Assembly: GCA_000004985.1 (NCBI GenBank)
Contig: GG738849.1
DNA from: Naegleria gruberi
Lineage: Eukaryota
Direction: 5' to 3' (one strand)
Length of the DNA: 64,000 bases
A program made the position numbers and the translations under genes. Below are positions 3,115 to 58,532 of this stretch, piece after piece. Each line of letters begins with the position of its first letter. Positions within the stretch are counted from its first letter, which is position 1. Under the pieces are notes generated by a model. The model searched no databases and was not told the DNA's origin. It worked only from the letters and a program-made list of their open reading frames with translations.

Positions 3115-3130
3115 ATTTTGGCGCCAAAAT
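3115..3130. promoter_or_regulatory. Perfect 16-nt palindrome ATTTTGGCGCCAAAAT (E2F-like TTTSGCGCSAAA element)
   Basis: GC-rich palindrome in AT-rich intergenic DNA, about 55 nt upstream of the ATG at 3064 (minus-strand gene). Confidence 0.5.
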
Positions 3131-3218
3131 TATCAGTTCAACATTAAGAAATAATGTCATTTGAAGTGTAAAGCATGTTTCATAGAATATGCAAATAAAA
3201 GAAAGAAATATATATTTA

Positions 3219-5045
3219 CTATTTCTTTCTGAGAGTGAGTCCAGTGAGTTTGGACAGAGTGAAAAATACTAATGTGTGTAAAGTCACCAGATAAAAGAAG
3301 AGGAATAAACGACCAAGTTTGTGGGATAGCATTAAACCACTACATCTATAAATAAGCTTCTCAGCTGCATTCATATTGTTTAGTCTGTCTTCTCTTTCCT
3401 TCTTGTGGAATCTCTTGAAAGGATCTAATTCTTGTTCATAGAGCTTTTCGTACTTGTTTTGAATTGGTTCATATTCCATATTTGATTCAGGATTTGGTTT
3501 GTTTCTACTTGTTGATGTATTATTACCAAATGATTGTAAATATTTAGTCTTTTCATACAGCTTCAAATTCTCCTTTCTGAGTTTTCCAACCTCATTTTCA
3601 ACTTGTTCCATTTGCTGTTTCAATTGGGCATATTGCTCCTCCATGACATTATTCTTGTCTCTGAAACGGTTACGTTGCTCTGTAAGAATTGATATGAGGG
3701 ATTGAGCATCAGTGGATTCTTCATTCTTTGGTGATTTCATTAAATTGTCCACATTGGATTCCAATCTCTCAATCATGGATGCTTGTTCCTTTGTTTTGGC
3801 TGAAAGTTGAGTGAGTTCTGTGTTGAGCGTTTCGATTTTTTCTTCCTTTTCTCTATTGTTTTGATTGGATTTGGTCAAATCATTTTCCAATTTCATAACC
3901 TTTTCCTTCAATAATTGCTCAACAGTCTTCTCTTGCAAGTTATTGTCATAGCCAAATTCCAATTGTTGAAGTGTGTCAATTCGTTCTCTAAGTTTGGACA
4001 TTTCCTCTCTGGATGGTCTTTGATTCAATTCATGTTGAGTATTCAACAAGAGTTGATGTTGTTGGTGGATTTGATCTTGTAGTTGTTGGATATTTTCCAT
4101 TTTTTCTCTATTTTCCTGTTTAAGGTCATTAATCTTTGTCAGATATTCAGTTTTCATTTCATTAATCATTAATTCCTCATCTACTCGTCCTTCAGAATTT
4201 TCAACAACAGATTTGGCTTGAGATTTCAATTCTAAAATTTCATTTTCATACTTTAACACTTGCTCATGATGCATATCGGATTGATACTGTTTTGATGCTT
4301 CAATTTCTTCAATCTTAGTCTTTAGTTCATAATTTACATTTTGAGTCTCATTGTACAAGTTTGATAAACGGTCATTTTCATTTTTCAACTCCTTGAGTTC
4401 ACTTTGCATTATCAGCTCACGATCTTTGAATTTTTGAATCATTAACTCGTGCTCTTTGGATAATTCATTTTGATTCTTGTACTTTAAAATTTCTTCCTCT
4501 AGCTTTCTAATTGTAACTTCTTGATTTTTCAAATGAGTAAATTCATGTTCATATTCAGTCAATTGTTTTTTCAATTCCTTGATTGTATTTTCATATTCTT
4601 CCTGGCTAGCCTGTTGTTGTGACATTTGTTGATATTTACAAATAATGTGATATGGATCAGGGGCTTCTCTTATTGGCTGATACAATTCCAAGAATAATTT
4701 TTCAGCATTCATTCCTCTGTTTGTCAGAGAATCAATCTCATCTTGATACGATTTGAGCAGTTTTGAGAATGAATTTAATTTTTCATCATTATTCAACTTT
4801 TTAAAATTCTTTGTAAGAGTTGCCAAGTTTTTTCTACTATTAGCTGTTTGTTCTCTAACCTTTACAATATTTAATCCTTGTTCATCAAAAAAGTCTCTCT
4901 TTTTATCTAATTCAATAGTTTTCCACAATTCTTTACATTTTTGTAAATCATTTAAATACATCATTGTTACTGATGAGGTGGGAATTATCGGATCGTTATT
5001 AGAACCACCCGATGATGATGAAGGGACTGTTGGTTGCAACGACAT
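3219..5045 (-). CDS. CASP/Coy1-type golgin (CUX1-related coiled-coil protein with a C-terminal transmembrane anchor)
   Basis: 608 aa ORF. The N-terminus (MMYLNDLQKCKELWKTIELDKKRDFFDEQ...LKSYQDEIDSLTNRGMNAEKLFLELYQPIREAPDP) aligns with the CASP N-terminus. Long coiled coil, then the conserved C-terminal block EKLIYRCSGLMLSHKLGRLFLFFYLVTLHTLVFFTLSKL (compare human CASP EKLIYRSGSLLLSNKHARMVAFFYTLFLHCLVFLVLYKL). ATG at 5043-5045. Confidence 0.8.
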   Translation of the reverse strand: MSLQPTVPSSSSGGSNNDPIIPTSSVTMMYLNDLQKCKELWKTIELDKKRDFFDEQGLNIVKVREQTANSRKNLATLTKNFKKLNNDEKLNSFSKLLKSYQDEIDSLTNRGMNAEKLFLELYQPIREAPDPYHIICKYQQMSQQQASQEEYENTIKELKKQLTEYEHEFTHLKNQEVTIRKLEEEILKYKNQNELSKEHELMIQKFKDRELIMQSELKELKNENDRLSNLYNETQNVNYELKTKIEEIEASKQYQSDMHHEQVLKYENEILELKSQAKSVVENSEGRVDEELMINEMKTEYLTKINDLKQENREKMENIQQLQDQIHQQHQLLLNTQHELNQRPSREEMSKLRERIDTLQQLEFGYDNNLQEKTVEQLLKEKVMKLENDLTKSNQNNREKEEKIETLNTELTQLSAKTKEQASMIERLESNVDNLMKSPKNEESTDAQSLISILTEQRNRFRDKNNVMEEQYAQLKQQMEQVENEVGKLRKENLKLYEKTKYLQSFGNNTSTSRNKPNPESNMEYEPIQNKYEKLYEQELDPFKRFHKKEREDRLNNMNAAEKLIYRCSGLMLSHKLGRLFLFFYLVTLHTLVFFTLSKLTGLTLRKK

Positions 5046-5247
5046 TTTTTTTATGTGATGATGTCATTCGATTTTGTCAGTGGGCAATTTTAGATAGGTT
5101 TCTTTAGTTTATTTGATTAATATAAAATTGAAATTAGCAAATAATTTAACTTACGGATTATCATTATGATTTGTTCTATGATGGATTGAACATGTATTTA
5201 ATGAAAACTAGTTGTTATATATTATTAAAATTTTAAAACTAAAAAAA

Positions 5248-5550
5248 ATGGTAAGTTTTATTGGAGGGATGTGCTAATAATATTCTCATCAATTTAAAAA
5301 TTAGTCATCATCGGATCAAGCCAATCAATTGGAATTATTGAAGAATAAATTTGTTGGAGTTGGACATGCTGATATCACAAAATTTGAATGGGCTGTAAAT
5401 CAACATAGAGATAGTTATGCATCATATGTATCACATTACCCAATGTTATCATATTTTGCCATGATTGAAAATGAATCCGTTCATAGAGAAAGATATCAAT
5501 TTATTGAACGAATGATTAAACCTTGTGGAAATAAGCCAACTAAGCAATAA
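5248..5550 (+). CDS. Splicing factor 3B subunit 5 (SF3b10/Ysf3 family); two exons with an ATG-only first exon: 5248..5250, 5305..5550
   Basis: Exon 2 encodes ...NKFVGVGHADITKFEWAVNQHRDSYASYVSHYPMLSYFAMIENESVHRERYQFIERMIKPCG, which closely matches SF3B5. Exon 2 has no in-frame ATG. aaaaaaaATG at 5248 is followed immediately by GTAAGT; the intron is 54 nt with a GCTAATA branch and TTAG acceptor, and the frame is continuous. Confidence 0.8.
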
Positions 5551-5551
5551 T

Positions 5552-6385: not shown

Positions 6386-6417
6386 TTTTAATAATAATGA
6401 TTTATTATTGAAATTAC

Positions 6418-6427
6418 TTTTTGCGCC
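6418..6427. promoter_or_regulatory. E2F-like half-palindrome TTTTTGCGCC between divergent genes
   Basis: About 35 nt upstream of the minus-strand ATG at 6385 and 80 nt upstream of the ATG at 6502. Confidence 0.4.
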
Positions 6428-6501
6428 TTAAATTTAAAAAAGTGAACGTTAATCAGTACTGGTTATTTGAAAACTCTCATAAGGAATCATCTTTAAAAAA
6501 A

Positions 6502-8553
6502 ATGGAACAACCTTACCCTTACTCCCATTTTTCAACCACCAACAATTATAACCAAAGGAATAATATGTGGATGAAGGAATCAGAAGACCCTGCCTATGTA
6601 TATAATTATAGTGCCACAGACGATGATATGTCATCCTCATACGAATATTCTTCAAATTGGAGCCAAAGTGCCTCGAACTATTCAGCAAATACAGCAACTA
6701 CCCAATCTTCTCTCACTTCAAAAGAATCCGAGCAGGTTGATCAATTCTTATCATCACTCTATGGATCCGATTATGAAAATATTATTAGTGATGACTCGAG
6801 TTGGAATTCAAGGCAAACGTCTGACCAATTTAAAAACGTGGCCAATATGTCGTTAGCAGAGCTTAATGATGCCCTAAACATCATGTTGCCTTATGAATCA
6901 CCAAACAAAACTACTTCATCAGAGAATAGTAGTGGCAAAATTTCTTCTTCCCATTCACCAACTTTGAAACCTTCAACCAGAAAGACTTCAAATAATTCAA
7001 TCTTTCATGCCCTCTATGAGAATAGTAATGACTGTTTTAGTGGAGCAAAATCTTGTATTGATCTCTCGTCGACGAGTGGCAGTAACAAGGAGAATACCTA
7101 TGCAACTAGCCCTTTGTCCAGTAACAGATCATCTCTATGTTTATCGCCATGTTCTACCAGTAGCTCTCTAACAAAGGTTAGAGAATTCAATCTCCAAACC
7201 GAGAAGAGATCCAGAATTATTAATAATGATATTGTGAAAAAAGAGGAGAAAGAATGTACTTTTCGACCAAAAATCAATTCAACCTCGTCAAGCATTGTAC
7301 AGTGTGACAAGTTTCACGACAGATTAGTAAAATGGCAAGAGAAAAAACGAAAAGAAACTGAGAGAAAGAGAGAGGAATTACTTCAGGAAGAAAATACTCA
7401 ATGTACATTTAAACCAAAAGTATTTTCAGTATCCTCAAATACAGAATCAGATGCGTGTATCAAGCTATTCAACAGTGCAACAAAGTTGGTCGAGAAAAAG
7501 AAGCACAATATTAAAAAGTTGGAACAAGAAGAAATGAAAGAATGTTCCTTCAAGCCATCCATATCAGGAGATCCTTCAGTACAATCAAGGTATTTGGATC
7601 AATCAAAGAAATCAACATCTACTGTGGAGGATGAAGAATGTACCTTCCAGCCAAACATTAGAAAGTCCATTGGAGGACAAAACTCTTCCTATCTTAAGAG
7701 TAATCCCTTTGAAAGATTGAGTAAGGTAAATAGATCTAGAATGGAATTTGATGAAAAAGATTCATTGTTGGATGAATTGACTGATTTGGAATCAGTCGAT
7801 TCATCAAATCAATCAAGTTGGCAGTCTTCTAGACCAAGTTCTGCACCATCCTCAAGGGGAGGAAGAGCTTACCAGGCATCTGTTGAGGAAACTAGTAGAA
7901 AAACCTTTAAGGATTTCATAGACAGGCAACAAAACACAATGAAAAGGAAGGAGCAAAAGATAAATTTCATTAAGAGCAATATGGAACACTCACACAAGCC
8001 TTCAATCAACAAAACTAGTATTGATTTGGCGAAAAATAGAAGTAAGACACCTTTTGAAGAACGGGTAAAGAATGAAATTAACAGAAAGAAACTAAATGAA
8101 AGGCAACAATCCGCACTTGCTGAGAAAAATTGTACATTCCAGCCCCAAATTAACAAAACCTCAAAACAGCTACCCTCGAGAGGGGTGGAAGAGTTGAGTA
8201 AGGGAGATTTGAACCTGAAACAAAAGAAAATAGAACAAACAAAGAAGGTTCTTGAGAGAAGTGAGTTTAAAGACGTAACATTCAAACCAAAAACCAACAA
8301 TGGTACTAAAGCCAAGTCAATTCTCAAATTATCGACTGAACCAGAAACCTATATTGAAAGAATTACTCAATATAAGGAACGAAATGAATACAAGAAGAAA
8401 ATGATGCTGCTTTCAAAGGAACAAAAAGAGCTCGAAGAGTGTACCTTCAAGCCACAAATTCACGATGCACCAGTTTATGTTAAAGAGATTGCTAAATCGA
8501 TGGCATTTGCAAGACAATTAGAGAATCAAGAAATACAAATTAAATGGCGTTAG
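6502..8553 (+). CDS. Repeat protein with seven [EQ]-C-T-F-[KRQ]-P-x-[IV] motifs (ECTFRPKIN, QCTFKPKVF, ECSFKPSIS, ECTFQPNIR, NCTFQPQIN, DVTFKPKTN, ECTFKPQIH); possibly TPX2-like or microtubule-associated, unassigned
   Basis: The 6421..8553 ORF runs from a TTG; the first ATG with an A-rich context is at 6502. Seven evenly spaced cysteine-containing repeats separated by K/E-rich helical spacers. An E2F-like TTTTTGCGCC element lies at 6418-6427, about 80 nt upstream. Confidence 0.55.
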   Translation: MEQPYPYSHFSTTNNYNQRNNMWMKESEDPAYVYNYSATDDDMSSSYEYSSNWSQSASNYSANTATTQSSLTSKESEQVDQFLSSLYGSDYENIISDDSSWNSRQTSDQFKNVANMSLAELNDALNIMLPYESPNKTTSSENSSGKISSSHSPTLKPSTRKTSNNSIFHALYENSNDCFSGAKSCIDLSSTSGSNKENTYATSPLSSNRSSLCLSPCSTSSSLTKVREFNLQTEKRSRIINNDIVKKEEKECTFRPKINSTSSSIVQCDKFHDRLVKWQEKKRKETERKREELLQEENTQCTFKPKVFSVSSNTESDACIKLFNSATKLVEKKKHNIKKLEQEEMKECSFKPSISGDPSVQSRYLDQSKKSTSTVEDEECTFQPNIRKSIGGQNSSYLKSNPFERLSKVNRSRMEFDEKDSLLDELTDLESVDSSNQSSWQSSRPSSAPSSRGGRAYQASVEETSRKTFKDFIDRQQNTMKRKEQKINFIKSNMEHSHKPSINKTSIDLAKNRSKTPFEERVKNEINRKKLNERQQSALAEKNCTFQPQINKTSKQLPSRGVEELSKGDLNLKQKKIEQTKKVLERSEFKDVTFKPKTNNGTKAKSILKLSTEPETYIERITQYKERNEYKKKMMLLSKEQKELEECTFKPQIHDAPVYVKEIAKSMAFARQLENQEIQIKWR

Positions 8554-8630
8554 TTTATTTTCTTCTGTTTTATTTGCTTAATTAACATATTGTTTATGAA
8601 CAAAACGGTTTTCTAATTGGAAAATGAGGG

Positions 8631-8650
8631 AATTTTTGGCGCCAATTTTG
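8631..8650. promoter_or_regulatory. E2F-like palindrome AATTTTTGGCGCCAATTTTG
   Basis: 50-70 nt upstream of the ATG at 8702. Confidence 0.5.
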
Positions 8651-8701
8651 TTTCCCGCCTTTCAAATCACATCAAAATCTTAATAAAACAATTTAAAAAA
8701 A

Positions 8702-9980
8702 ATGGAACCAATTGATGACTCTGATCTCGAAAATGCTATGCAGGATACTAACTCTACAAATCTCTCCACTCTAGAGAAAAAGTTAAAGGAGAAGAATCAG
8801 CAGCTGAAAAAGGTTTGTATTATCTTGTTGTCTACGAATGTCAACACAACATAGCTATCAAAAGCTTTCTATGCTCTCCAACAAGAGAAGAGAGACTTGG
8901 AAGAGTATTGTATTGTGTTGGAATCGGAAAATATGGAATTTAAAAAAGTTAGGGAACAAATGGATTTCCTCAAAAGCAAAGACGAAGACATTGCTAGACA
9001 ACATCAAAAGCTTTTAGAAAATGAGGAAAGACACATTCAAAAATTGGAAAGAGATATTGAAAAGTATAAAGACGAGAAGAAGAAACTTCAATCAAAGATC
9101 AAGGATTACTTTCTTCCTGAAATCAAAAAATTGCAAATGCTTAGTTCAAAACTGGAAAAGAGTAACATTATGCAAAAAAATCAAATCAAGGAATTTAAAC
9201 GAGAAGTCCAAGAAAAGAATCAAAGGATTAATGAAATGATTGAAGAAAATAGAAGGGATGAATCTCTTCAGAATATCAAGTTTCTTAGAGATCAAAATTC
9301 GACACTTCAAGCAGATCTTAAAGTACTGAAACAAAAACTTGTCACAAAGAACGCATTATGTGAAGATCAGTATGTTGAGCTTCAAGATCTGAGAGCAAAA
9401 GTCGAGGATTTGGATAACAAGCTAGCAAGGAAAACAAATTGGAATCAACAGACTCAATTATTTTACACAGAAAAGAAAGAGCACATAGATGTATTAAAGA
9501 GGGAAAAGATGGCACTCACACGACAACTTAAAAAAGAAGGTAAAAAAGCAACGAAACGAGAAGAAATTATTACAGACCTACTGGAAAGAAATGCTAAACT
9601 GAGAGAGGCCCTTATATGTACGAGTGTTCCTCCAGCCACAGTAGTTGACCATGTTGTCGAAAAATCATTCTATGACAATGTTTCGAATCAACTTAAACTT
9701 ATACAGCAACAGTTAGATATGGACGTGGTTGGTGATCCGTAAGTACTATTAGTTTTATAAGATTATTAATTATCAAAATAATCATTTGTTTAAAAACAGA
9801 GAGCACATTGAAACCAACAGACTTGAAAAGGTAGTTCAAGAAATTCCAATCACATTCCCAACATCCCCACCAAGATTTGATGATAACAAAGAATTAACAA
9901 AAGAACTGAAAAATGAAAGTGCAAGACTTCTCACAAAATCAGTGTTTTTAACGAACGAATTTAAGGAAGTCAACATTTAA
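8702..9980 (+). CDS. Coiled-coil protein of unknown function; three exons (8702..8812, 8855..9738, 9800..9980)
   Basis: aaaaaaaATG at 8702. Intron 1 is 8813-8854 (42 nt, GTTTGT..TAG). Intron 2 is 9739-9799 (61 nt, GTAAGT..AAACAG). Both joins restore the frame of ORFs 8897..9742 and 9786..9980. The product is heptad-rich throughout. An E2F-like palindrome lies at 8631-8650. Confidence 0.55.
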
Positions 9981-10008: not shown

Positions 10009-13000
10009 TTATTTATTGAGCATTTCTTTCAAAGCATTCTTTTGTTCAGTGGTTAACATCTTTTCCAAGTGAGGTAATACTTGTTGATTGACTTGGCATA
10101 ATTCCTTCATCACTTGAGGAAGTATCTCAATAAGATTTACATTATTAATTGGATCTTTTGATGACAAGACATCGTCAAAGTACTCCTCTTCATCATCGTC
10201 AAAGTCATCATCAACAAGTTGATGTAAATAATCATCCTCAACATTAGAATCTGTACCCATAGGCTCACCACCATACAAGACACTTTCAGCAGAATATTCC
10301 TTCTTCTTGTCGTTTTCATTTTCCTTTGCTCTCACAAAAGCATCAACCAAAAGAACAAATGCATGAAGAACAAATGGCATTTGTCTTTCCTTTGTCTTTG
10401 ACTTGGATCTAGTTCTGTATTTTCCTGATGATTCCTTTTCAATTTCTACGGATACAGTAACTGTTCCCAAACGTTCATCTCCAGTTTGGAGCAATTTAGC
10501 CAAAGCTGTTGCTGTAACCTTTAACTTGTAAGCTCCAAAGAAAAATTGTTGATTCTTGGACCACTTATTCAAAAGACAAACTAGCCCATTAGAATCTCCA
10601 ACCTTGATTGATTCCAAAAGGTTGAACATTTGCACAACATCTTGATGATGGAAAAGCTTGGCAAACACAAAAACTATTGATTGAATGAAGATTAATTCTT
10701 CTGAGACATTCAATTTAACAATGCAAGCAGATAGAATTTTTCCAATAATTTCCATGTTAAGTGCAGTACCAAGCTTGGTAAAAATTTCAGTAATTAATTC
10801 GCCAACACCAAAAGCAGCTGATTCACTGAAATTTGGTTGCAACAATCTGTAAATATATTCCAATAAGAAGTGGAATGAAGAAACTTGGTGGTTTTGACTT
10901 GTAAATCTGTGTTGAACTAGAATTTCCTCACTCACATGAACAATGGATCTCAGGCATTCATTGATTTTTTGGATCCATGAAGGATCTTCATTGGAAAATC
11001 CAAGAGACATCAAACTAGGGAAGAGAGAATTCAAAATTGTAATAGAATCTTCCTTCTTTGCACGAACAATAATGGTATTAGACAAGTTGAGCAAATTCTC
11101 TACGAAATCTGATTTGGTGGCAGTTCCACTACTTGTGAAAATTTGAGCAATTCGTGGAATGACATTGTTAACGAGTTGAGCCTCAGTTTCTGGGATTTGT
11201 GCAAGCTTGTCGAATACATTAATAATATCACTTGAAATAGCATGATCATTAGAAAACTTGTCCAATTGATTCAACATAATTGAAATAACATTGGCGCTTT
11301 GAGGAACCACAACATGAGGTAAGAACTGCAATATTTAGAAATTTAGAATCACTCACACACATATAACAACTTACATTTACAAAAACAGCAATGCTTTCCA
11401 ATGGAATGTACATGGTTTCATCTGTTAAATCATCAACCAATTTACACATACAAAAGAGAATGTTTTGTAAAATCTCATCCTTTCCTTGTCCAAATGATGA
11501 GATGAGAGGTTCCAAAATTGGTGAATGTAAACAGAAAATTCTTGCAACTGCTTGACAAGAGTATAATCTCAATGGAAGTGGTTGTTGCTCGTTAAGGTGA
11601 TTTACATAAATAATAAATAATTGCTTGATCAGTTCAAGACTATTGATCTTGTATAGTTTGGTATTACTGATTTGTCCTAAGAAGAAGCTTGAACATTGGA
11701 TGGCTCTCGATTTCAAAAATTGCAAGCTTTCTGTGTTGACTTTCAAGTCATTTTGAACAAGTTGATTCATAAGAGATGGCAGATCGAAAATCTTTGGATA
11801 ATCTTCAATACTATCTCTGAATCCTGTAAAACTGGAAATACACATCAAGCAGGCTTCTCTGAGTTTCCACCAAGTACATGAATTAGAATTTTGAATATAT
11901 AAATTTTGTGATTCTTGCATTCTCTTGTGATATGCTTCAAGTAAACTTTCAACTGCTAAATTATCATAAGTATCATGGAAATCTTCAATCAATTTAGCAC
12001 AAGCAATTCTAATACTATAGCTGGAATATTGATTGTCTTCCTCAGAGACAAATTGTTCTGGTTCAGTTTCCCAAAGTTCTGTCATACTTTCTGGTAATTG
12101 AGAGTAACCAATTAATAAATAAATTAATTGAACCAAATTTGCCTTGCTAGAAGATAGCAATGTTGAAAGCTTTGGATTTAAAACAATTGTCGCCAAAAGT
12201 TCAATTTGTTGACAAATTACTGTTGTAAAGTTAACATTTTCACCTTCACTATCATATCTAGCTGCAATTTCTTTTGTTGGAATACCACTTTCAGATGGCG
12301 AAAGAACAGCATGTTTAAAGTAAGTTTCATATTCCTTTTCCAAAGAGATACAAGTTGATTGTAAAACAACAATGATTGCTTGTTGTAATGTTTTTCCAAA
12401 CTCTTTGATAAGTGTATTCATCATCTTGACACATTCCATCTTGAATGAGCAATCAGATTCAACATTTGGAATCGGTTTGCAAATTTCTCCTAACACTATA
12501 TTCATAGTTGGCTCCAAAGCAGTAGCCAATAATTTCTTTGATTCTTCAATGAGACGATCATCAATAACTCTTTCTCCCTCCTCTGGAGCTTCTTCATAAA
12601 CTCCATCATCCCCATAATCATCCACATACTCATCATCTTCATCAGTTACATCCCCTGATACCATAGCAATTAAAGAAAACATTTCTGAACAAACAGTAAG
12701 AGCTTTAGCTCTAATAATATCAGGTAATTGAGCATTTTCAGCAATTTTCAACATGTAAGGTACTAAAACTGGAAAAACGAAAATGGTATGCTTATCAGAG
12801 AAGTGTTGAGCAACAAGTGACAAACACTTGAGAGCACCCAATGATTGAGCAAAATTTTGTTGATTTGTTAAACCATTTTCATAAATATTAATTAAAATTT
12901 GAATCAAATCATTCCATTCCTCAGGAAATTCATGTTCAGCTGCCTCTGATATACTCATACCAAAAGCTGTATTAATTTTTGAAAGGAAAGCAGGAGGTGT

Positions 13001-13522
13001 ATCAACTTCAAAATCACCAACCATTAAACCCAAAGGAAGAAGATCCTTGAATTGTTTTTTCAAATCTGCTGATGTAATAGTATTCCAATGTGTTTTAATA
13101 TAACCCTTCAATAAAACTGCTGATAATTGTCTAACAGCAGGATTTAAAATAACATTCTTAAGTTGTGATTCTTGTTGAATAATTTGATGAAGAGGAAAGT
13201 GAATAGAACAATTAAACATGTTATTATCCGAAACACAAAATCTATTTCGGAATGGAATATAATCATAAAGTGATACATGTAAAAGTAAAATTCCATAATA
13301 TGAACATCGTGATGGAAATGATAATAATTCATTTTGTGCTCCATTAATTTCCTGTGGTGATACCATCACACCACCTCCAATCTTGTATAAACATTGAGCA
13401 AGAATAGAAAACTCGCGTTGGAGTTCTTCCATTGTGAGAGGTACAAATGAGCTGAAGGGTGGTACTACCGATGCATGTGATGATGAGGCGTGAAGCGGCG
13501 AACCAACAACTTTTGGCATCAT
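10009..13522 (-). CDS. Importin-9 / Kap114-type karyopherin-beta; two exons (13522..11375, 11325..10009)
   Basis: The N-terminus has an importin-beta N-domain (ESQLKNVILNPAVRQLSAVLLKGYIKTHW). The middle (YSSYSIRIACAKLIEDF...TWWKLREACLMC) and C-terminus (YKLKVTATALAKLLQTGDERLGTVTVSVEIEKESSGKYRTRSKSK...) align with importin-9, and the protein ends in an acidic tail. A 49-nt minus-strand intron (GTAAGTTGTTAT...TCTAAAT...TTGCAG) joins ORFs 11249..13522 and 10009..11331 in frame. Confidence 0.85.
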
Positions 13523-23892: not shown

Positions 23893-26413
23893 TTAATTCT
23901 CCACCAAGTATTCTCTGATTGTCGTATGATAACCCTTCAGTAAATGCTCAACAAACTTTTCATCTCTATTCTGTTCAATAGTATTGATGAGGTGAAGTAA
24001 CTTTTTGGAGGGAACATCCTCACCCTTCTCCATCAAATAGGTTTCTAAATAGACCTTCTTTTCCTTTAGCTCAGATAGTATATTCTCTACACTTGTATTG
24101 TTGTTGAAGAGATTGAAAATAGAGTGGTATTGGAGAATCTTTTGATTTTGATTCTTATTTTCCAACTCGTACATCCATTCTACAATATTGATTAGGAAAG
24201 ATAATAATAAGAAATGTTGATGAAAACAAAGAATACTTACCATCACCTTCAACTTTGGATTCTCTGATAATTTCGTAAATAGTTTGTGGAGTATTGTCGT
24301 GGGTTGTGTCTTTCTGATGTGAGTTGGAGGAGAATACTGAATTGTGTGGGATTATTCTGTCGACTGGTCTGACAACAAAGTGCTCATTATTTGCAGTTTG
24401 CTCGTCGACAAGGATGGATATTCTGTACAATGAAGCCAAATGGCTTAACCTTTGAGACATTTTACATGCATTGGAAATAATAGAGTAGACTCTTGAGGTT
24501 TTAGTTCCCAAGTTTCCAACGTAAGAAGAGCGAGTAGAGATTCCTATGAAGCACTCGATCTGAGTTTCGCTCAGATCTTGTTGTTGGTTGATTTGATCCA
24601 TAACTTTTCTAATTTTAAGAGCTAACTCTTGAGCTACCAAGTTGGACTTTTTCTTCTTGCTTTCTATTATTATTTGGTATTCATCTAGGGCAATAATTTG
24701 ATAATCACATTGGAAAACCTTTGCTGCTTCTGAAATACTAGTCAAAATTTTAGGGAATATACTTGAAACTGTTTCATGAGAATGATTTTTCAACAAGTTA
24801 CTCAATCTTACATTCACTACTGAGCACTCTTTGTGTGTGAGACCTAATTTAAAAAGACCACCCTTGTGATGAGTACCACTATCATTTGTTCGATTTCTGT
24901 CACTAAAACTACTGTTCAACCCAGTGCTAACCGAAATATCTGTTCCTTCTTGCTTCTTTTCTGCAATAGGTTCTTCCTCAATGTTTTGATTCTGTTGTAA
25001 TTGGAGGAATACTGATTCAGGAACAAAGGCCTTAATTTCTTTTAACCACTTAACTGTAATGGACAAGCTTGTATAGACTTGATTTAATTCATTGAACATG
25101 GAATTGGAATGTCTGACATTCTCAAGCTCGAAGATTTTGATAAATTCAAATTGGTTTCTGAGATAGGAAATTGGTTTCAAAATAATCATTGAAAGCACGA
25201 CTGAAAATGCAATACCAATAAGCGTAATCAAAACGGCAACACCAACCGAAACACCAATACTAATGTGAGTGGTTTGCAAAATATCTTGTGTTACTACAAT
25301 GACATACATATCCCATTTGATATTTTCAAATTCGTAAACAACATGTCGCACAAGATAATCAACACCATTTGAGGAAATTGAAGTACCTTTTGGTAGCTTA
25401 CTGATATCACCAATAGTTGAATTGATATCTTTCATTAACTTGCCTGCATTTCTAGCCGAAATATCAAAAATACTCAATCTTGACTTTTCATCAAATGTTG
25501 TACAATTGATACTGCCAGCTATTACATAGTCGTTTGAGCTTTCTTTGATAATTACAAAACCTTGGTCGAAGACTTGGACCTTCTTCTCAAGAAAATCACT
25601 AATACCAGAAAGTGGCTTGACAATTCTTGCAATACCTTTCAAATGTTTGGTTCCTTGAGCGAATAATTGTTGGTCATACACCTTGGCACCAAATGAAATG
25701 GACAAGGTTCCGTTTGTAACAATGTAAGGATAACTGAAAGCTCCCTCCTTCCCAATTCTAGCTGCTTCACTCACAGCAACATAGTAAAAGTCCTTCTTTG
25801 CCACATTGTAAGGAGTATAATCAATAGTTTCATTTAACACAAGAAGAGTACCATTCAACAAATAGGTATCACGAATTGAGCCAATGAAACCAGGAGGTTG
25901 ATAAGAGTAGACAATTTCCTGTTTACCTTGTTTTCCAATAATGGTATAGGAATATCTTTCTGAAGGATTTGTAAATGCATAACCAGCACTCAACCCACTC
26001 ACTTTGAAAGGAGTATAAAAGTATTTTCTAAAGTAATCAGTTGTAGCCAATCCATAATTATAGTGATCTGCCATCGTCATGCCAGTATTTTTCATTTCGT
26101 TCAAAACCGAGTCAATATAAACACTCATCTTTTCTTCAAGCAAACCAAGAACATTTTCAGTTAGTTCATCCACTGATTGATTCATCAATACAAATACAGA
26201 GACATAGATAGAAACAGAACACAACAAGACAAGCATTATCATTGAGACAATTATAAATGTCTTTAAAGAGCAACAAGTTGTTTTCTTTCCAGTGCCAAAG
26301 AAGGACCCATCATCAGAGAAAGATGCAATACTCTGGTCCTCCTTATGATTTTCTATAACACTTGCAGTGGTGGGTGTTATCTTCATGTCTTTTTTAAAAA
26401 GAATTGTTTTCAT
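23893..26413 (-). CDS. Receptor-type class III nucleotide cyclase-like protein: N-terminal transmembrane segment, about 370 aa extracellular sensor region, second transmembrane segment, cytosolic adenylyl/guanylyl-cyclase-like domain. Two exons (26413..24241, 24179..23893)
   Basis: Hydrophobic segments IIVSMIMLVLLCSVSIYVSVFVLM and GVSVGVAVLITLIGIAFSVVLSMIILK. The C-terminal domain (CSVVNVRLSNLLKNH...CDYQIIALDEYQIIIESKKK...IGISTRSSYVGNLGTKTSRVYSIISNACKMSQRLSHLA) resembles class III cyclase catalytic cores (KIKTIGDAYM / IGIHTGPVVAGVIG...NTASRME). A 61-nt intron (GTAAGTATTC...CCTAATC...TTGTAG) joins the two ORFs as ...KVEGD|EWMYELENK. The start is taken as the first ATG; the ORF opens at a GTG at 26479. 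Confidence 0.7.
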
Positions 26414-26592: not shown

Positions 26593-26610
26593 AATTTTGG
26601 CGCCTTTTTT
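26593..26610. promoter_or_regulatory. E2F-like element GAATTTTGGCGCCTTTTTT
   Basis: Upstream (minus-strand orientation) of the cyclase-like receptor gene starting at 26413/26479. Confidence 0.4.
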
Positions 26611-31228: not shown

Positions 31229-31242
31229 AAATGGCGCCATAG
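31229..31242. promoter_or_regulatory. Palindrome AAATGGCGCCATAG (GGCGCC core)
   Basis: About 60 nt upstream of the ARL2BP-like ATG at 31300. Confidence 0.35.
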
Positions 31243-31299: not shown

Positions 31300-31695
31300 A
31301 TGTCTGAAATTGTATATTCTGTTATGGAGTACTTGTTGGATGAACAATTCGGTGATGCTGTAGGTAAATTAAAAACATGATTCTAAATAATGGATGATAA
31401 GGTAGAAGAGTTCGGTAATAAGCACTGTGATATCTTTGAAATTGATGAAGAAGAACAAAAATTGGAATATACAAATGTATACAACAAATTCGTAAAGCTT
31501 TTTGAATCCAAAGTTGAAGAATTGCTTAAACAAAAGGGAGTCACACCTCAAGAATTTTATATTGAATGTAAAAGATTGTCTGAGGAAGAAAACGATCAAG
31601 AAATTGTAGAGTTCTTGTTAGCACTTTCAGATTATCAAGTATTTTACAACATGATGAAGGAAATCAAGTTGAGAAAACTAGGAAAACAACAATAA
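31300..31695 (+). CDS. ARL2-binding protein (BART)-like; two exons (31300..31359 or ..31363, 31402 or 31406..31695)
   Basis: The spliced product MSEIVYSVMEYLLDEQFGDAVEEFGNKHCDIFEIDEEEQKLEYTNVYNKFVKLFESKVEELLKQ...LALSDYQVFYNMMKE matches ARL2BP (FDAVVGYLEDIIMDDEFQ...EDTEENKLIYTPIFNEYISLVEKYIEEQLL...FTDFLAFKEMFLD). The intron is 42 nt (GTAGGT or GTAAAT donor, TTCTAAAT branch, AAG or TAG acceptor); both options give the same protein. An ATGGCGCCAT palindrome lies 60 nt upstream. Confidence 0.6.
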
Positions 31696-41852: not shown

Positions 41853-44459
41853 TTATTTTCTTTTGTGTTTTCTTTCTGAGACTTGTTGGAATGCAAAATT
41901 ACTATCTTCCCAATCTTCTGGATTTTGCTTCTTTCTTATCTTTTTAGTTTTACCAGCATCTAATGCTCTATCATATTCATCCCTCCCAAAGACTTTTGGT
42001 GCAATAACTTTTTCATTGAAAATCTTTTGTTGCTTTGCCTTTTCTTGAGTTTCCTCATCATCCCAAACATCTACATCCTCAGAGTATTGAGAGCTAGCAC
42101 CCTTAAAGAGTTGATTGGCAGATATCTTGACGGATTGTGTTGTTGGCTCTTCAGATGTTTCATTATCGCTGCCTGATTGATCTGATTCATAGTCATCGAA
42201 CTTTCTCTTTTGACCCTTCTTTTCAAAGACATCTGTTTTAGTTTGACTTGGCGAGAATATTGGAGAATCAGAAGTGTAATTATCGAGAGAGAATGGATTT
42301 TGTGGTTTTCCATCGTCTCCATTTAAAGTTTTGATCGGCGTAGAAGGAACATTAACTCGAAATAATTTTTCAGTAGAAACGATATTCTTCTTAAGACCAT
42401 CCAAGTGATTCTTATTGACCCACATTGCTTCAATATTAGATGAAGAGGAAGAAGAGAGAGTAATTGGTGAGAGCAAACCTCCAACACCTCTCATAATATT
42501 GATAGGTGGAACTGATCTCATAGATTTAAGGACTTGAAGTTTTTGAGGTGTCAACTTTTCAAGAATATCAATTCTAATTGGAGCATAGAAAGGACTTGGT
42601 GGTTCTAGTTTTGAAGGAGGTGTAGTAAGCTTGGCAGATGTTGAGGTAGTCTTAGGAATGGAAAGGTTTGTTGGTTTCTTTGAATCGCTAGCTTTTTCTT
42701 CATTGGTCGTGGCAGATGTATTATTTGTATCGATAATTGTGGTAGTAGTACTAGTTGGTTGTTTAGATTGGTTTGATTGTTTTTTACGAATGACTGATTC
42801 TTTTTCATCGTCATCTTCCATCTTGTCATCAGATGAGCCTGTTGCTGGACTGGATGATGTTGAGCTTGGTGATTGAATTTCTTGCCACTTTTTGACAGAT
42901 TCCTTGAAAATTGCAGTACACTTATCAGACTTGAAATCATCCATATTTCTCGAGTAAAATAACATGTAAGCTTGTTGACCAAGTGCTGTATTTTGACTGA
43001 CTTGAGTGACAGAACTATCATCCATTCTATACCAAATACCATTACTATTTTTCACAAATGAGTAATAGTGACCAGAACTAGAGGACCCTCCAGAGTGTAC
43101 AAGAACACCATATAAACTGTAACGAGCAACAGTATTCTTATTGCTCATGTATGGGGAAATATCGAGGGTGTCTTCGTATGAAATCTTTTTGCTAACCTTC
43201 TTTCCGAAAATGTTAAAACGTTTGAGTTGGAGAATTAAATTAATTGGAGCCTCGTGAATTGTAAGCTTTTTAGAAGCTGTGACATAGGTATTAGTTTTTG
43301 GACACTTGTACTTGTTCTTTCCATCCAATCTGTCAGGAGTAATATAATTTTGGAATGATTTTTCAACTGATGTACAATTATTGAGTTGAAGTTCAATATC
43401 AATAAATGCGTCATACTTGTTGGAAATGTAATTTGTTTCCATAGTCTTAATTTGGCTTCTCAAATAGCCACCAAAAACTTGATGAACAGGATTAGTTTCC
43501 AATACTATATTATCCATCTTTCCCTTATATTTCTCTACGATAGCATTCTCCATCTTGTCAAGTAATTGAACAATAAACTCGTGTGCATCTTCTTGATACC
43601 CCAAAACAAATCCACCAATACCTTTCAAATGTTTGGCAATAAAACCAGGAGAAACAACATTAGATCTTGAAGATCTACCAGAAGATGTTTCATTTCCTAA
43701 AAACATTTCTCTTGCAAGGAGTGACATGGCATCAAGTGCATTGAACTTTTTCGATTGTTCTCCAATCTTTCTAGAAAGTAAAAAGTTTCTCAAAGCAGGT
43801 GTGTACATCAAGCATTGAAGTGCAGCATTCATGAAACAAGTATTTCCAAGATTTTGTAAACCAGGTCCAATCTTTTTAATTTCTGTCCAACTATTCAAAG
43901 AAATAATCTTTTCACGAGGAATGAGGAACATATTTGGAGGATCCAATTCCTTGTTATGTTCAATATCATCACCCTTTTTTGCTTCTGGTGTTGCAGATGA
44001 TGATGTTGATGATTTTGATGTGTGCTTTTCTGAATTTTCTTTTGAATTATCTGCTTGGTGGTCATAAACAAAAACATTCGTGGAAGTGCCATTAATTGGT
44101 TTCATCTTTGAAAAAACATTTTCATAATTGTCAGGAAGTTGTGCCTTCACAAATGAAATTCGTTGTTCAATTATCTCCGATGATCCTTTTAATAGTGCTT
44201 TTAATTGTTCATTATTTTCAATATCATCATCACCTTCTGTGTCTTTTTGATATCTTTTAACTTCTCTTTCATCCTCACTATCATCAGAAACTTCTCCTTT
44301 TCTACTACCATTCTTTGTAAAGACTCGTTTTCTTTTAGTTTCCTCCGAGCTATTGTTGTGGTTGCCATTCAATGTTGTTTCTTGTTGTTGCTGGCTGGCC
44401 CGTTTGAACATCTTTCTTGGCTGATGTTTTCCCGCTGCGTTAGGTGCTCGACCGCTCAT
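41853..44459 (-). CDS. Ubiquitin carboxyl-terminal hydrolase (USP/UBP family deubiquitinase)
   Basis: 868 aa. Cys box GLQNLGNTCFMNAALQCL and His box GHYYSFVK...WYRMDDSSV. Basic S-rich N-terminus and acidic/Ser-rich C-terminal extension. The first 80 nt of the CDS are noticeably GC-rich relative to the surroundings. Confidence 0.85.
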   Translation of the reverse strand: MSGRAPNAAGKHQPRKMFKRASQQQQETTLNGNHNNSSEETKRKRVFTKNGSRKGEVSDDSEDEREVKRYQKDTEGDDDIENNEQLKALLKGSSEIIEQRISFVKAQLPDNYENVFSKMKPINGTSTNVFVYDHQADNSKENSEKHTSKSSTSSSATPEAKKGDDIEHNKELDPPNMFLIPREKIISLNSWTEIKKIGPGLQNLGNTCFMNAALQCLMYTPALRNFLLSRKIGEQSKKFNALDAMSLLAREMFLGNETSSGRSSRSNVVSPGFIAKHLKGIGGFVLGYQEDAHEFIVQLLDKMENAIVEKYKGKMDNIVLETNPVHQVFGGYLRSQIKTMETNYISNKYDAFIDIELQLNNCTSVEKSFQNYITPDRLDGKNKYKCPKTNTYVTASKKLTIHEAPINLILQLKRFNIFGKKVSKKISYEDTLDISPYMSNKNTVARYSLYGVLVHSGGSSSSGHYYSFVKNSNGIWYRMDDSSVTQVSQNTALGQQAYMLFYSRNMDDFKSDKCTAIFKESVKKWQEIQSPSSTSSSPATGSSDDKMEDDDEKESVIRKKQSNQSKQPTSTTTTIIDTNNTSATTNEEKASDSKKPTNLSIPKTTSTSAKLTTPPSKLEPPSPFYAPIRIDILEKLTPQKLQVLKSMRSVPPINIMRGVGGLLSPITLSSSSSSNIEAMWVNKNHLDGLKKNIVSTEKLFRVNVPSTPIKTLNGDDGKPQNPFSLDNYTSDSPIFSPSQTKTDVFEKKGQKRKFDDYESDQSGSDNETSEEPTTQSVKISANQLFKGASSQYSEDVDVWDDEETQEKAKQQKIFNEKVIAPKVFGRDEYDRALDAGKTKKIRKKQNPEDWEDSNFAFQQVSERKHKRK

Positions 44460-53080: not shown

Positions 53081-53126
53081 TTTTTATATTTCTTACTAAT
53101 ATTTAAATAATATTCAATATATAAAA

Positions 53127-54586: not shown

Positions 54587-54869
54587 CATTGTTGTATGCT
54601 GAACAAATAAACACTCTATGTTGTCGACAAGGTTGAAATGCAAAATCGAATTGCTATTGCCATTCACAAAGCAAAATGAAACCTCTTTATGTTACTCAGT
54701 CCAAACAAATCATTGCAAAGGCTTTTTTTAAAAAATATGAAAACATTGTAGCGCGGATCGTTTAAACAAGCAATTAAAGTACCTCATCTCAACTCTCTAC
54801 CAACAATAATCAAAATAGCATTGAAAAGAGGAGCGTTTGCAGCAAAACAATATTACATTTGAAATTTAA

Positions 54870-57188
54870 ATGATGAATTCCCCTAGTAAAATTGAAGATA
54901 CACCTCCATCTACAAGATTGGACGGAACAGACATCAAATTAGAGCCTTTACATCTTTCTTCGACAGAGGAGAATGATGTTTCATCCCAATCCTCTCAGTT
55001 GACAACAAATTCTGACCCTAATTCTATAACCTCTCCGACAACATCTAGTAGTGATTCCCTTCCATCTCCTACCACCTCTATAATTCCGACCATTATTCAT
55101 CAAACAATTCATCATCAATTTTTAGATATTCTACATTTGCCCGAAGAACTTCAAATTTATATTATTCAATTTTGCACACCTCTAGAGCGTTTTCAGGTTA
55201 TTTGCAGAATTTCTAAACACTTCTATAATCTTATTTTCTCCCATAAAGGTTGGAGTTGTGTTGTTGGTTCCATGACCTCTCCTCACATCAAGGACATTTC
55301 AAGTTGCATTTTCGATTGTGCTTGGTTTTCGAAAAAGAAAAAACTTCACACCCTTGCTGTAGGTCTCTCTAGTAGTACAAGTGGTGAAGTCACTGCCTCA
55401 GCAAGTGTAGGTAGAAGGAGGAGAGCCATTCTTCAAGCAAGACTTCCATCCAACAATGGTGATGGTGAACAACAAGAAATTGTCATTAATAAGGACAAAT
55501 CCGACGAAACAATTGAAAATTTATTTAGCAAATGCAATTTTGAACACATTGAAGTGAATTGCTCGACAGTACCTAGCACTAGACTTTTGCTAAGCTATGC
55601 AAAAGAATACTGTAAATATTTAAAAACATTGATATTTGGTTACAATTACCACGTAGATATTAAGGATTTAATAGAGAACATCTTGATTCCATTTTCTAAT
55701 CAATTGGAAAATTTACATTTTAGCTTTCAATGGGATTCTTCAATCATTTACAATGGTCAGGACACCTTAAAACCAACAAGCTCTCCTGTTCAAGACCTAA
55801 ACGTGAAACCTCAACTCTTATTCTCTCCAAAGGGCATTCCATTCTTTGCATCTCCTCAATCCAAAAAAACGGAAGAAAAGCCAAAACCGGCCACTATTAG
55901 TCAATTACCAATTGTGGACTGCTTTACTCCTTCTTTCGAGTTGACCAAACTTAAAATACTGGATATTTTTATTGGCAACTCTTCTGCCATAGCCAAGCAG
56001 TTCTTTATCAAAGTATGCCAATCCTCTCCTAACTTGAGAGTTTGTAAATTGAAAGGAGACATTCAAATAGAAATGCTATTATCCCTTTCTAAATTTTGTA
56101 GATATTTGGAAGTTTTAATTCTGTACAATACCGGTAAAGAGAAGTTAACAGATGAGTCAATAAGTGACATGTTAAAAATTGGAGGGGCTTTCAACATGTC
56201 ATTACGAGTTTTATCCCTGTCATGTCCTTCATTAACACTCAGATCTATTGCACTGATAACAAAGTTTTGTAAAAATTTACAATACTTTGCCATATCAAGT
56301 CTAGATATTAAGAGGGAATCAAATAATGACTATATGACTTTCCACAAACTCGAGCAACTTAAAGTCCTTAAAGTCAAAGATGAAATGAATCATGCAAACT
56401 GGCTATCAGACAGACTACTAAAATGTCTATCAAGTGACATTGAATATATTCAGGTACCTGTACCAACTGATGAATCAGATGTTACATTCACTCTTTCAAG
56501 TGAAGAGATTTCCTTTAAAAAACTCAAAAATTTGAGGCTAACACAGATTAATTCAGAAACTTTTCCAAATTTTTTCCTGGGAGGATGTGCCAACAATCTT
56601 CAAGAGCTCTATTTGGAGTTTGATAATACTCAATGTAGCATGTTGAATCAATTGAAATTATTTGTTCCACAACTGGTAAATTTGACCACACTCACCTTGG
56701 AAATGTCAGAATTTGATTCCACTCTTTTCACCATACTATCACACCTTCCCAACTTACGTAGGCTTTACATAAAGACTCGAGGAAATATTGAAAAGTATGA
56801 AGCTGAAAATGGATGGAAACTCAAAAGATTAATGAATTTGGATACCCTTGTAATTAATAGTGCTTCAATATCCCAATTTTTCACAGAAGATTTTATCATT
56901 TCTCTTAACAATCTAGTAATGATTTGGCTTGCTTGTCCAGTAAATTGCAAGGCAATCATTGATCATGAAGAATTATCTGAAGAGGATAAGCTGAATATTT
57001 CAGTGGAAAATGTCATTAGATGTTGTGACCAGTATATTCACGATCATTTCGATGAATTATCTCAAGAGGAAAAATTGGAAATGAAGAAGGAAATCAAACA
57101 CAGACTAATGGGTGACACTCAATACGAATACAAGTTTATTAGTCCTAAACCTAATATACTAATGCAAAAACATTTTTGCACATTTTAA
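54870..57188 (+). CDS. F-box / leucine-rich-repeat protein
   Basis: S/T-rich N-terminus, then an F-box (LHLPEELQIYIIQFCTPLERFQVICRISKHFYNLIF), followed by LRR-like segments (LKILDIF..., LRVLSLSCPSL..., LQELYLEF...) through 772 aa. Confidence 0.7.
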   Translation: MMNSPSKIEDTPPSTRLDGTDIKLEPLHLSSTEENDVSSQSSQLTTNSDPNSITSPTTSSSDSLPSPTTSIIPTIIHQTIHHQFLDILHLPEELQIYIIQFCTPLERFQVICRISKHFYNLIFSHKGWSCVVGSMTSPHIKDISSCIFDCAWFSKKKKLHTLAVGLSSSTSGEVTASASVGRRRRAILQARLPSNNGDGEQQEIVINKDKSDETIENLFSKCNFEHIEVNCSTVPSTRLLLSYAKEYCKYLKTLIFGYNYHVDIKDLIENILIPFSNQLENLHFSFQWDSSIIYNGQDTLKPTSSPVQDLNVKPQLLFSPKGIPFFASPQSKKTEEKPKPATISQLPIVDCFTPSFELTKLKILDIFIGNSSAIAKQFFIKVCQSSPNLRVCKLKGDIQIEMLLSLSKFCRYLEVLILYNTGKEKLTDESISDMLKIGGAFNMSLRVLSLSCPSLTLRSIALITKFCKNLQYFAISSLDIKRESNNDYMTFHKLEQLKVLKVKDEMNHANWLSDRLLKCLSSDIEYIQVPVPTDESDVTFTLSSEEISFKKLKNLRLTQINSETFPNFFLGGCANNLQELYLEFDNTQCSMLNQLKLFVPQLVNLTTLTLEMSEFDSTLFTILSHLPNLRRLYIKTRGNIEKYEAENGWKLKRLMNLDTLVINSASISQFFTEDFIISLNNLVMIWLACPVNCKAIIDHEELSEEDKLNISVENVIRCCDQYIHDHFDELSQEEKLEMKKEIKHRLMGDTQYEYKFISPKPNILMQKHFCTF

Positions 57189-57251
57189 TAAAGGATTGAG
57201 TGTTCTTTCAATGCTTTGTAAACAATAATTGCCAAATTTAAACAAAAAAAA

Positions 57252-58482
57252 ATGTCTTCAAGCACCGAACCAACAACATCTTCATCAAACTCGGAACAAT
57301 CACTGTATGCAAATTCTGTTAATGATGACAATAATGCATATAAAAGAGTGGAAAAAAGCTATAGAAAACACTTTGTTCCAAACAAGCATGGGAAAATGGT
57401 TGGTAGGTTTATTTGGAATAGTTTCGGTTGTAACACAAATAGAGGCCGATTATCCAGACACAACTAATGTGATTGATTTTCATAATTTGGAAAATAATAC
57501 CCCTGAAAATTTACAAGTTTTGGAACAAGTACAACTTCCTAGTACTGAAATGGATATGAAACATTTTGAAACGGCTTTGGAAAAGTATAATAATTATTTT
57601 GCTAATGATGAACATTTAAAGTCAACCATGTCATTTACAAAGGAAGAACTTTTAAGCAAAAAGATTTATACCTTTAAAGGATATCCTGGTTTTTATGTTA
57701 TTAAAGATTTAATGACACCAGAAAAACAAATCTATTGGATAAAGCAAGCACTAGAAACCTATCCAAATCCACCAAATATTACCAATCACACAATGAAAAA
57801 CGGAGAAATCTTGGATATTTTCAAGAGAAGTGTTGAAGGGGATGAATCTGCAAAGAACTATCTTAAAAAATTGGCTTGGTGCACTCTTGGATATCAATAT
57901 GAGGTGAGTTTTTGGATGATTTTCAAAAATTTACAAGTTGGATTTGTTAAAACAATTTAGTGGACTACAAGAAAATATCACAAGGATAAATTTGTTCAAT
58001 TCCCACATGATATTGGAAATTTCTGTGACCTCATTGCTTGCCAATGTAATTATGGCCCATACAAGCCAGAGGCAGCCATTGTCAATTTCTACTCAAAGGA
58101 CAGACTTATGGGAGGTCATGTTGATGATGCTGAATATGAAATGACCAAACCAATCATCAGTTTGAGTATTGGATCAAAATCAATTTTTTTGCTTGGAGGT
58201 GAAACAAGAGATACTGAACCAAAGGCTATTTTCTTGGAATCTGGTGATTGTATGATTATGGGAGGAAGAGCAAGATATTGCTTCCATGGTATTGCTAGAA
58301 TTCTCAAAGATACTATTCCAGAATATCTTCAAACTAAGTTCGTCGATCCAAAATATAAAATCTATGCTGAATATATGGAAAGAGACATGATGAGAATTAA
58401 TATTAATGCAAGACAAGTTTTTGTCGATGAAGAACAGAAGCAAGATTTTGATACTAATGGTCCTGTAACATCATCTCAATAA
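57252..58482 (+). CDS. ALKBH1-type Fe(II)/2-oxoglutarate dioxygenase (AlkB homolog 1); three exons (57252..57402, 57443..57903, 57961..58482)
   Basis: NAYKRVEKSYRK...VIDFHNLEN..., YTFKGYPGFYVIKDLMTPEKQIYWIKQALETYPNPPNITNH, KLAWCTLGYQYE|WTTRKY...GGHVDDAEYEMTKPIISLSIGSKSIFLLGGETRDTEPKAIFLESGDCMIMGGRARYCFHGIARI all align with human ALKBH1. Intron 1 is 40 nt (GTAGGT...TGTAACAC...AAATAG) and switches the frame from 0 to 1. Intron 2 is 57 nt (GTGAGT...TTTAG). Confidence 0.8.
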
Positions 58483-58500
58483 ATTTTTCAAAGTTTGTTT

Positions 58501-58532
58501 TTTGCCGCCAATTTTTAATAAGCGCCAAAACC
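58501..58532. promoter_or_regulatory. Two E2F-like half sites: TTTGCCGCCAA and AAGCGCCAAAAC
   Basis: 30-60 nt upstream of the ATG at 58562. Confidence 0.4.

Follow-up and report, generated by a model that had tools for sequence, protein, structure and literature searches.

Conserved promoter elements resembling E2F sites in Naegleria gruberi and related Heterolobosea

We analyze a 64,000-nucleotide stretch of Naegleria gruberi DNA (GenBank assembly GCA_000004985.1, contig GG738849.1; hereafter, "the window") in which short GC-rich palindromes and half sites resembling the binding sites of E2F transcription factors lie just upstream of start codons. The G+C content is 33-36% across the window, and long open reading frames (ORFs) are densely packed and broken by few short introns. 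The gene set is that of a eukaryote and includes a CASP golgin, an importin, GH47 mannosidases, IML1, UCH, a PKA regulatory subunit, a dual-specificity phosphatase with leucine-rich repeats (LRR), PIG-M and TKL kinases. Two of the window's proteins have their best matches in Naegleria and Willaertia, which bears out the view, taken in a preliminary description of this DNA, that its source is not a Dikarya yeast. About four to six of the 31 genes in the window, or roughly one in seven, carry a site: A, B, C, D, and possibly F and UCH (Table 1).

The family of gene B is nearly confined to Heterolobosea, with 6 representatives among 1.84 billion proteins; the window copy is 75% identical to its counterpart in N. 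lovaniensis and 55% identical to that in Willaertia. Gene C, 43-44% identical to its best relatives (in Naegleria lovaniensis, N. fowleri and Willaertia magna), is, by its predicted architecture, a receptor-type cyclase-like membrane protein and no obvious cell-cycle gene. For genes A, B, D and E2, as well as for gene G, which adjoins gene B in related genomes, relaxed Pfam searches, PDB sequence searches and a full profile search returned no function; the spindle or microtubule roles proposed in the preliminary description drew no support from them. Gene A reads through if its model is given a 37-nt GT..AG intron near 2230 and a single frame change inside the AAT microsatellite near 2650; the frame change may reflect a misassembly or an unusual intron. 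In protein E2 (window 6502-8553), an (E/Q/N/D)(C/V)(T/S)F(K/R/Q)P motif recurs seven times, at intervals of about 40-100 residues.

Table 1. Coordinates of the elements, genes and promoters discussed in the text (window positions, unless another genome is named)
Feature	Position	Strand	Description
Full 14-mer palindrome TTTTGGCGCCAAAA	3116..3129		52 bp upstream of gene A ATG (3064, minus strand)
Palindromic core TTGGCGCCAA, 10 bp	8636..8645		57 bp upstream of gene B ATG; first of tandem pair
TTTCCCGCC	8651..8659	+	43 bp upstream of gene B ATG; second of tandem pair
Half site TTTGGCGCC	26596..26604	+	183 bp upstream of gene C ATG (26413, minus strand)
Variant palindrome ATGGCGCCAT	31231..31240		No T-run, only the GGCGCC core matches; 60 bp upstream of gene F
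TTTCCCGC(T), one ambiguous position	44428..44436	+	Codons 8-11 of the UCH ORF, within its first 11 codons
TTTGCCGCC	58501..58509	+	53 bp upstream of gene D ATG
GCGCCAAAA (TTTTGGCGC on the minus strand)	58522..58530	-	32 bp upstream of gene D ATG
TTTTTGCGCC	6418..6427	+	Between divergent genes E1 and E2; off consensus, not counted as a site
Gene A	1117..3064	-	Serine-rich, C-terminal coiled coil, no known domain
Genes E1 and E2	ATG 6385 (E1); ATG 6502 (E2)	- (E1); + (E2)	Divergent pair
Gene B	8702..9980	+	Coiled-coil protein of about 388 aa, two short introns
Gene C	24155..26413	-	Membrane protein: extracellular region, transmembrane helix, weak adenylate/guanylate cyclase domain
Gene F	31300..31695	+	BART-domain protein (ARL2-binding, CFAP36-like), one intron; PF11527, E = 5e-19
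UCH ORF	ATG 44459	-	Site 44428 at its start
Gene D	58562..60316	+	584 aa, RPSSA-type repeats and coiled coil, no known domain
CEP44 bidirectional promoter	N. lovaniensis (L003) 13106-13304; N. fowleri (L004) 13184-13268; Willaertia (L005) 13169-13236; ENA contig (L006) 5896-5935		

The preliminary description had named seven places in the window as E2F-like elements, and its observation is partly confirmed. The sequences quoted at all seven places are present. Three of them had been called full palindromes flanked by T and A runs. The one before gene A deserves that name; it is the sole exact 14-mer in the window and scores as two overlapping matches to the E2F consensus TTTSSCGC. The one before gene B is a 10-bp palindrome with T-runs on both sides, and the one before gene C is a half site. 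The two half sites before gene D are on consensus, the first of them in an 80-bp spacer that follows an AlkB-like gene, but the supposed half site at 6418 fails both TTTSSCGC and the relaxed TTSSCGS, and the E2 promoter holds no consensus site. The element before gene F had rightly been listed as a variant. Taken together, the window holds eight strict matches to the E2F consensus, and two of the seven listed elements depart from it, 6418 outright and 31231 as a variant. The list was also incomplete: it missed the 8651 element, which, standing beside the palindromic core at 8636-8645, makes the gene B promoter a tandem pair, and the 44428 element, which alternatively lies 17 bp upstream of a second in-frame ATG of the UCH ORF. 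The listed elements do lie upstream of ATGs, two of them serving minus-strand genes (A and C), although the range of 30-100 bp given for them is exceeded at gene C. No site was found at Nse1 (15959), and GCGCCAA at 11291, considered as a promoter site of a TPR gene, turned out to lie inside the importin gene.

Matches to the consensus are far more frequent in the window than its composition would give. On both strands together, TTTSSCGC matches 8 times, at 6 loci, versus 1.09 matches expected from 100 dinucleotide shuffles, none of which exceeded 3. The palindrome GGCGCC occurs 4 times (0.39 expected), and the 8.7 kb of the window that are free of long ORFs contain 5 strict matches (0.12 expected). 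An unbiased count of hexamers in 4.9 kb of upstream DNA places GCGCCA at the top, with 8 occurrences versus 0.15 expected, and the next non-AT hexamers in that count are CGCCAA and GGCGCC.

For comparison, we collected ten loci that carry orthologs of genes B and C, a paralog of gene C (L010) or the E2F-family gene DEL, from N. lovaniensis, N. fowleri, Willaertia magna and two metagenome contigs. The gene B loci are L003 (N. lovaniensis), L004 (N. fowleri), L005 (Willaertia) and L006 (a Naegleria-like contig from ENA). Pooling the window with L001-L008 yields 214 kb, in which 19 of the 23 strict sites fall in non-coding DNA no more than 250 bp upstream of a start codon, a territory that makes up 9.4% of the pool (binomial P ~2e-16), and 3 of the 23 are coding. 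The start-codon enrichment that the preliminary description anticipated is therefore seen, on 214 kb rather than genome-wide. The pool is not an unbiased sample of the genome, its loci having been found by way of orthologs of genes that carry the motif, and this bias weighs against our interpretation. Despite the biased pool, the sites met incidentally in the flanks (those of CEP44, gene G, TBCC, IFT20 and the WD40 gene, and one at L008:21637) are independent observations. L009 and L010, which together measure 15 kb and stand outside the pool, contain no strict site.

The flanks of the sites have little in common. An alignment of seven upstream regions gave 36% mean identity and no common block outside the core, so the elements do not belong to a dispersed repeat family, membership of which the preliminary description had named as fatal to its proposal; a mobile-element remnant is rejected on the same absence of similarity into the flanks. 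We consider it scarcely credible that the matches are functionless products of chance, base composition or decayed repeats. In its favor are the small sample, 8 matches in one window, and 44428, which may be coding, as 3 of the pooled sites are; on the other side stand the shuffles, the unrelated flanks, and the retention of sites at orthologous promoters whose remainder cannot be aligned across species.

Between a site and the start codon that follows it are 10-230 bp, typically about 50 bp and mostly 30-70 bp; sites occur in either orientation and sometimes in pairs. This fairly constant short distance is the point in favor of a general core-promoter or transcription-start element that is not specific to particular genes. 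Such an element would be expected in far more promoters than the few that carry the motif in the window, and most housekeeping promoters in all loci are free of it; with sites that also occur in both orientations and in pairs, we reject this explanation as highly improbable.

Conservation gives a second line of evidence. Promoters are otherwise unalignable between Naegleria and Willaertia, the remainder of the gene B promoter included, and yet the gene B site is kept in five species, as a two-part module in four Naegleria-type genomes and as a single GGCGCCAAAA directly before the ATG in Willaertia. The module reads TTGGCGCCAA-ttttg-TTTCCCGCC in the window, TCCCGCCAAA-cct-TTTACCGCC in N. lovaniensis, TTCCCGCC-tcc-TTTTACCGCC in N. 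fowleri and TTGGCGCCAAAA-ct-TTACCGCC in the ENA contig, the position of the second element being TTTACCGCC in each of the last three. In four species, gene G is preceded by GGCGCCAAAA, ACCGCCAAAAA or GCGGGAAA, 10-50 bp from its ATG. The promoter from which CEP44 and a TPR gene diverge, 40-200 bp long, holds one E2F-type site (TTTGCCGCGC, TTCCCGC, TTTGGCGCCAAA or CCGCCAAAAA) in four species, namely three Naegleria-type genomes and Willaertia; the divergent neighbor is the TPR gene in L003, L004 and L005 and an unidentified 164-aa ORF in L006. The gene order G, B, TPR, CEP44, WD40 is kept in the species of L003-L006 and not in the window.

Further sites are kept in fewer species. The WD40 gene retains CCCGCCAAA in two species, and in N. 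lovaniensis and N. fowleri the ATG of IFT20 is preceded, at about 50 bp, by ATGGCGCCAT (L001 12629; L002 3191). The same ATGGCGCCAT thus stands 50-60 bp before two cilium-associated genes, IFT20 in two species and the BART/CFAP36-like gene F in the window, and it may be a subclass of the motif. In Willaertia, TBCC carries TTTCCCGCCAAA 47 bp before its ATG. For gene C, a site is found in two of the four cases compared: besides the window site, TTGGCGCCAA stands about 215 bp before the ortholog in N. lovaniensis, and no site was detected in N. fowleri (492 bp upstream covered), in L009 or in the L010 paralog. Across these promoters, orthologous sites exchange GGCGCC, CCCGCC and ACCGCC for one another and retain the CGC core together with the T/A-run. 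Such swaps of GG and CC (sometimes AC) at the two S positions are the very degeneracy by which the E2F consensus is defined.

Proteins that could bind such sites are encoded in the genus, as the proposal of the preliminary description required for E2F and DP. Medina et al. 2016 (PMC4862756) list, in their source data, N. gruberi E2F, DP and RB, and also DEL, which has two winged-helix domains. In our alignment, the recognition helix of NgruE2F is identical to that of human E2F4 in the E2F4-DP2-DNA structure 1CF7, and the same binding specificity would therefore be expected. The coiled-coil/marked-box region of NgruE2F aligns with the fragments of E2F4 and E2F5 that bind pocket proteins, its PDB search also matched E2F8 (4YO2), and NgruDP carries RRRVYDALNVL.

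Orthologs of DEL with the domain PF02319 are present in N. lovaniensis and N. fowleri, and they were the sole orthologs returned by a combined search with the N. gruberi E2F, DEL and RB sequences. The 22.5-kb DEL locus of N. lovaniensis contains only two strict TTTSSCGC matches, and the DEL promoter, 340 bp long, holds both: TTTCCCGCC at -232 and TTTGGCGC at -88. In N. fowleri, TTTGGCGC recurs exactly, at -74, and the first site has the form CTCCCGCC, which is off the strict pattern. As N. lovaniensis and N. fowleri are close, this two-species footprint weighs less than those shared by Naegleria and Willaertia. E2F7/8 in animals and DEL1 in plants are themselves E2F targets, and the putative sites on the Naegleria DEL promoter fit a network of E2F type.

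A stretch of 17 nt, TTTCCCGCCTTTCAAAT, is identical between the gene B promoter (window 8651-8667) and the N. lovaniensis DEL promoter (L007 9769-9785); its counterpart at N. fowleri DEL (L008 ~9790) is CTCCCGCCTTTCAAAT. This identity gave rise to the idea of a composite of E2F and CHR elements, TTCAAA being the reverse of the CHR element TTTGAA. A CDE/CHR composite, as bound by DREAM/MuvB through LIN54, has a CHR (TTYGAA) at a fixed 4-nt spacing downstream of a GC-rich CDE. We rejected it: TTTGAA or TTCAAA lies beside 4-5 of about 30 promoter sites, in mixed orientation and at mixed spacing, and a search for CDE-N0-6-CHR in the forward direction had no match in the window.

Judged by their sequence, these are genuine promoter elements of E2F type, conserved and not the work of chance, and we think it probable (at roughly 70%) that they are binding sites of E2F-family winged-helix factors. 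The variants TTTGGCGC, TTTCCCGC, TTTGCCGC and the palindromic TTTGGCGCCAAA all match the E2F consensus. The bound factor could be an E2F-DP heterodimer, the two-domain DEL protein, which resembles E2F7/8, or both. In either case, the RRxYD recognition helices of two winged-helix domains would contact the two halves of the (G/C)GCGC(G/C) core, and the T-run would set orientation and affinity. In a genome this compact, so short a distance to the start codon would put the sites near the transcription start. If animals, plants and Dictyostelium are a guide, a pocket protein of RB type may keep the promoters off until CDK activity frees E2F, and DEL, controlled by E2F in its turn, may act as an RB-independent repressor. 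What we infer beyond the sites is that they are bound, whether and when they activate or repress, and which programme they control, and the "cell-cycle regulon" of the preliminary description, whose interpretation is partly supported, is of the same kind.

In addition to the bias of the pool, three observations speak against E2F-family binding. The recognizable targets are not typical S-phase genes: they comprise CEP44, IFT20, TBCC, the BART protein and the receptor cyclase, and the others are coiled-coil proteins. The ATGGCGCCAT variant before IFT20 and gene F, lacking the T-run, could belong to another factor. Finally, the site of gene C is kept in one of three orthologous promoters and is absent from the N. 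fowleri paralog.

Some of these same observations would suit a different and possibly lineage-specific factor that acts on GGCGCC/CCGCC cores and drives a microtubule-organelle programme of basal body, flagellum and spindle, the likeness to E2F sites being coincidental. The identifiable targets CEP44, IFT20, TBCC and the BART/CFAP36-like protein would be natural members of that programme, the IFT20 and gene F sites are the form without a T-run, and RFX and FOXJ1 are missing from Naegleria, for whose cilia genes no regulator is known (PMC12183034). Against this, the full range of variants fits the E2F consensus, orthologous sites interchange within it, and the promoter of a DEL/E2F7-8 gene carries sites. 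We know of no other factor family with the specificity of these sites: NFI sites have a spacer, the half site of the RFX X-box differs, and the GCC box has no T-run. We therefore regard such a factor as unlikely, though less so than chance or a core-promoter role.

Among known motifs, the RFX X-box (GTNRCC-N0-3-RGYAAC) was rejected, since its half sites differ from the core TGGCGCCA and RFX is reported absent from Naegleria (PMC12183034). The yeast motifs PACE, MSE and the RFX/Crt1 X-box, together with NFI, fit neither the sequence nor the organism.

Binding by E2F-family factors, our preferred reading, can be set beside the systems in which such elements are known. The cis-elements of animals and plants (TTTSSCGC; the palindrome TTTSGCGCSAAA, as in DHFR; plant TTTCCCGCC) follow the same consensus, GG/CC degeneracy included. 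They are likewise palindromic or tandem, occur in either orientation near the transcription start, and are read by the same recognition helix. What differs is the lineage, Heterolobosea (Discoba), and the targets, which are not the classical replication genes; our comparison is also made at the level of sequence. The atypical two-domain E2Fs, E2F7/E2F8 in animals and DEL in plants, bind sites of the TTCCCGCCAAAA type, and the Naegleria DEL ortholog has the E2F winged-helix domain PF02319. The Willaertia TBCC element TTTCCCGCCAAA matches the E2F7/8 consensus, and which member of the family would occupy it is not something the letters can tell. We found no report in the literature of E2F sites, or of any promoter motif, in Naegleria.

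In its targets, the RblA/E2F regulon of another amoeba, Dictyostelium, shows a likeness: its mitotic set includes spindle components and a tubulin-folding cofactor, as compared with TBCC and CEP44 here. Besides S-phase genes, that organism places mitotic, centrosomal and tubulin-cofactor genes under its RB-E2F axis (Strasser et al. 2012, PMC3386910). The Dictyostelium regulon was defined by expression in an rblA mutant, whereas the elements described here are known from sequence and conservation. Naegleria, unlike Dictyostelium, builds centrioles and flagella de novo, and IFT20 and CEP44 belong to that programme rather than to mitosis. In vertebrates, E2F4/5 with Multicilin (MCIDAS/GEMC1) acts outside the cell cycle, in the centriole amplification of multiciliated cells, where it turns on genes for making centrioles and cilia (PMC12183034). 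The E2F-type sites before CEP44, IFT20 and the BART protein recall this use of E2F, with the difference that vertebrates run their IFT genes through RFX/FOXJ1, factors missing from Naegleria.

A more specific proposal, which we put forward tentatively, is that E2F-family sites may form a shared cis-regulatory code of the Naegleria microtubule-organelle programme. One element would switch on spindle-related genes in mitosis and, in the amoeba-to-flagellate differentiation, the genes for de novo basal bodies and flagella. In the sequence examined, a site stands at every recognizable microtubule or cilium gene (CEP44, IFT20, TBCC and the BART protein) and at none of about 25 recognizable housekeeping genes, a grouping that was made after seeing the data and that involves a handful of genes. 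The motif-free housekeeping neighbors include Med7, LSM, RPL38, UMP1, acyl-CoA dehydrogenase, PABP, RabGAP, GH47, PIG-M and eRF1. Interphase amoebae of Naegleria have no microtubules. According to a 2025 review, Naegleria is without RFX, FOXJ1 and XAP5, and the regulators of its cilia genes are unknown (PMC12183034); its tubulin cofactors and some of its axonemal genes rise in both mitosis and differentiation (10.1101/2024.01.08.573270). It is the targets, the mitotic set of the Dictyostelium RB-E2F axis, these Naegleria expression data and the absence of RFX, FOXJ1 and XAP5 that, taken together, make the link possible.

Several other features of the window are recorded here. The window as a whole is depleted of CpG (observed/expected 0.39 in ORFs and 0.51 outside them), with GpC near 0.8-0.9, a combination that would fit cytosine methylation; because every E2F-type site contains a CpG, methylation could affect the sites. 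The overlapping minus-strand ORFs 10009-11277 and 11249-13522 (window 10009-13522) appear to be one importin-9/11-like gene with a frame change or an intron. Between 26500 and 29680, no ORF exceeds 125 aa over about 3.2 kb, whereas about 80-85% of the rest of the window is coding; searches there gave no match in Pfam or Rfam and no sign of repeats. This segment could be non-coding, or it could hold a decayed gene or one rich in introns. An Rfam search of the entire window returned no match.

E2F, DP and RB are thought to be as old as the last eukaryotic common ancestor, and most records of E2F binding sites come from animals, plants and a small number of other groups. The elements described here extend a familiar kind of promoter element to a new lineage, and conserved sites in Heterolobosea, the DEL promoter included, would show the same age for the site and for part of the circuit. 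Naegleria is a classic system for the de novo assembly of centrioles and flagella, and the motif offers a concrete hypothesis for how its cilia genes are regulated; it could also nominate uncharacterized coiled-coil genes to the microtubule-organelle programme. If the tentative link to that programme is true, it would be an ancient counterpart of the vertebrate use of E2F with E2F4/5 and Multicilin, and the coiled-coil targets A, B, D and G would be candidates for new centriole, flagellar-root or spindle proteins.

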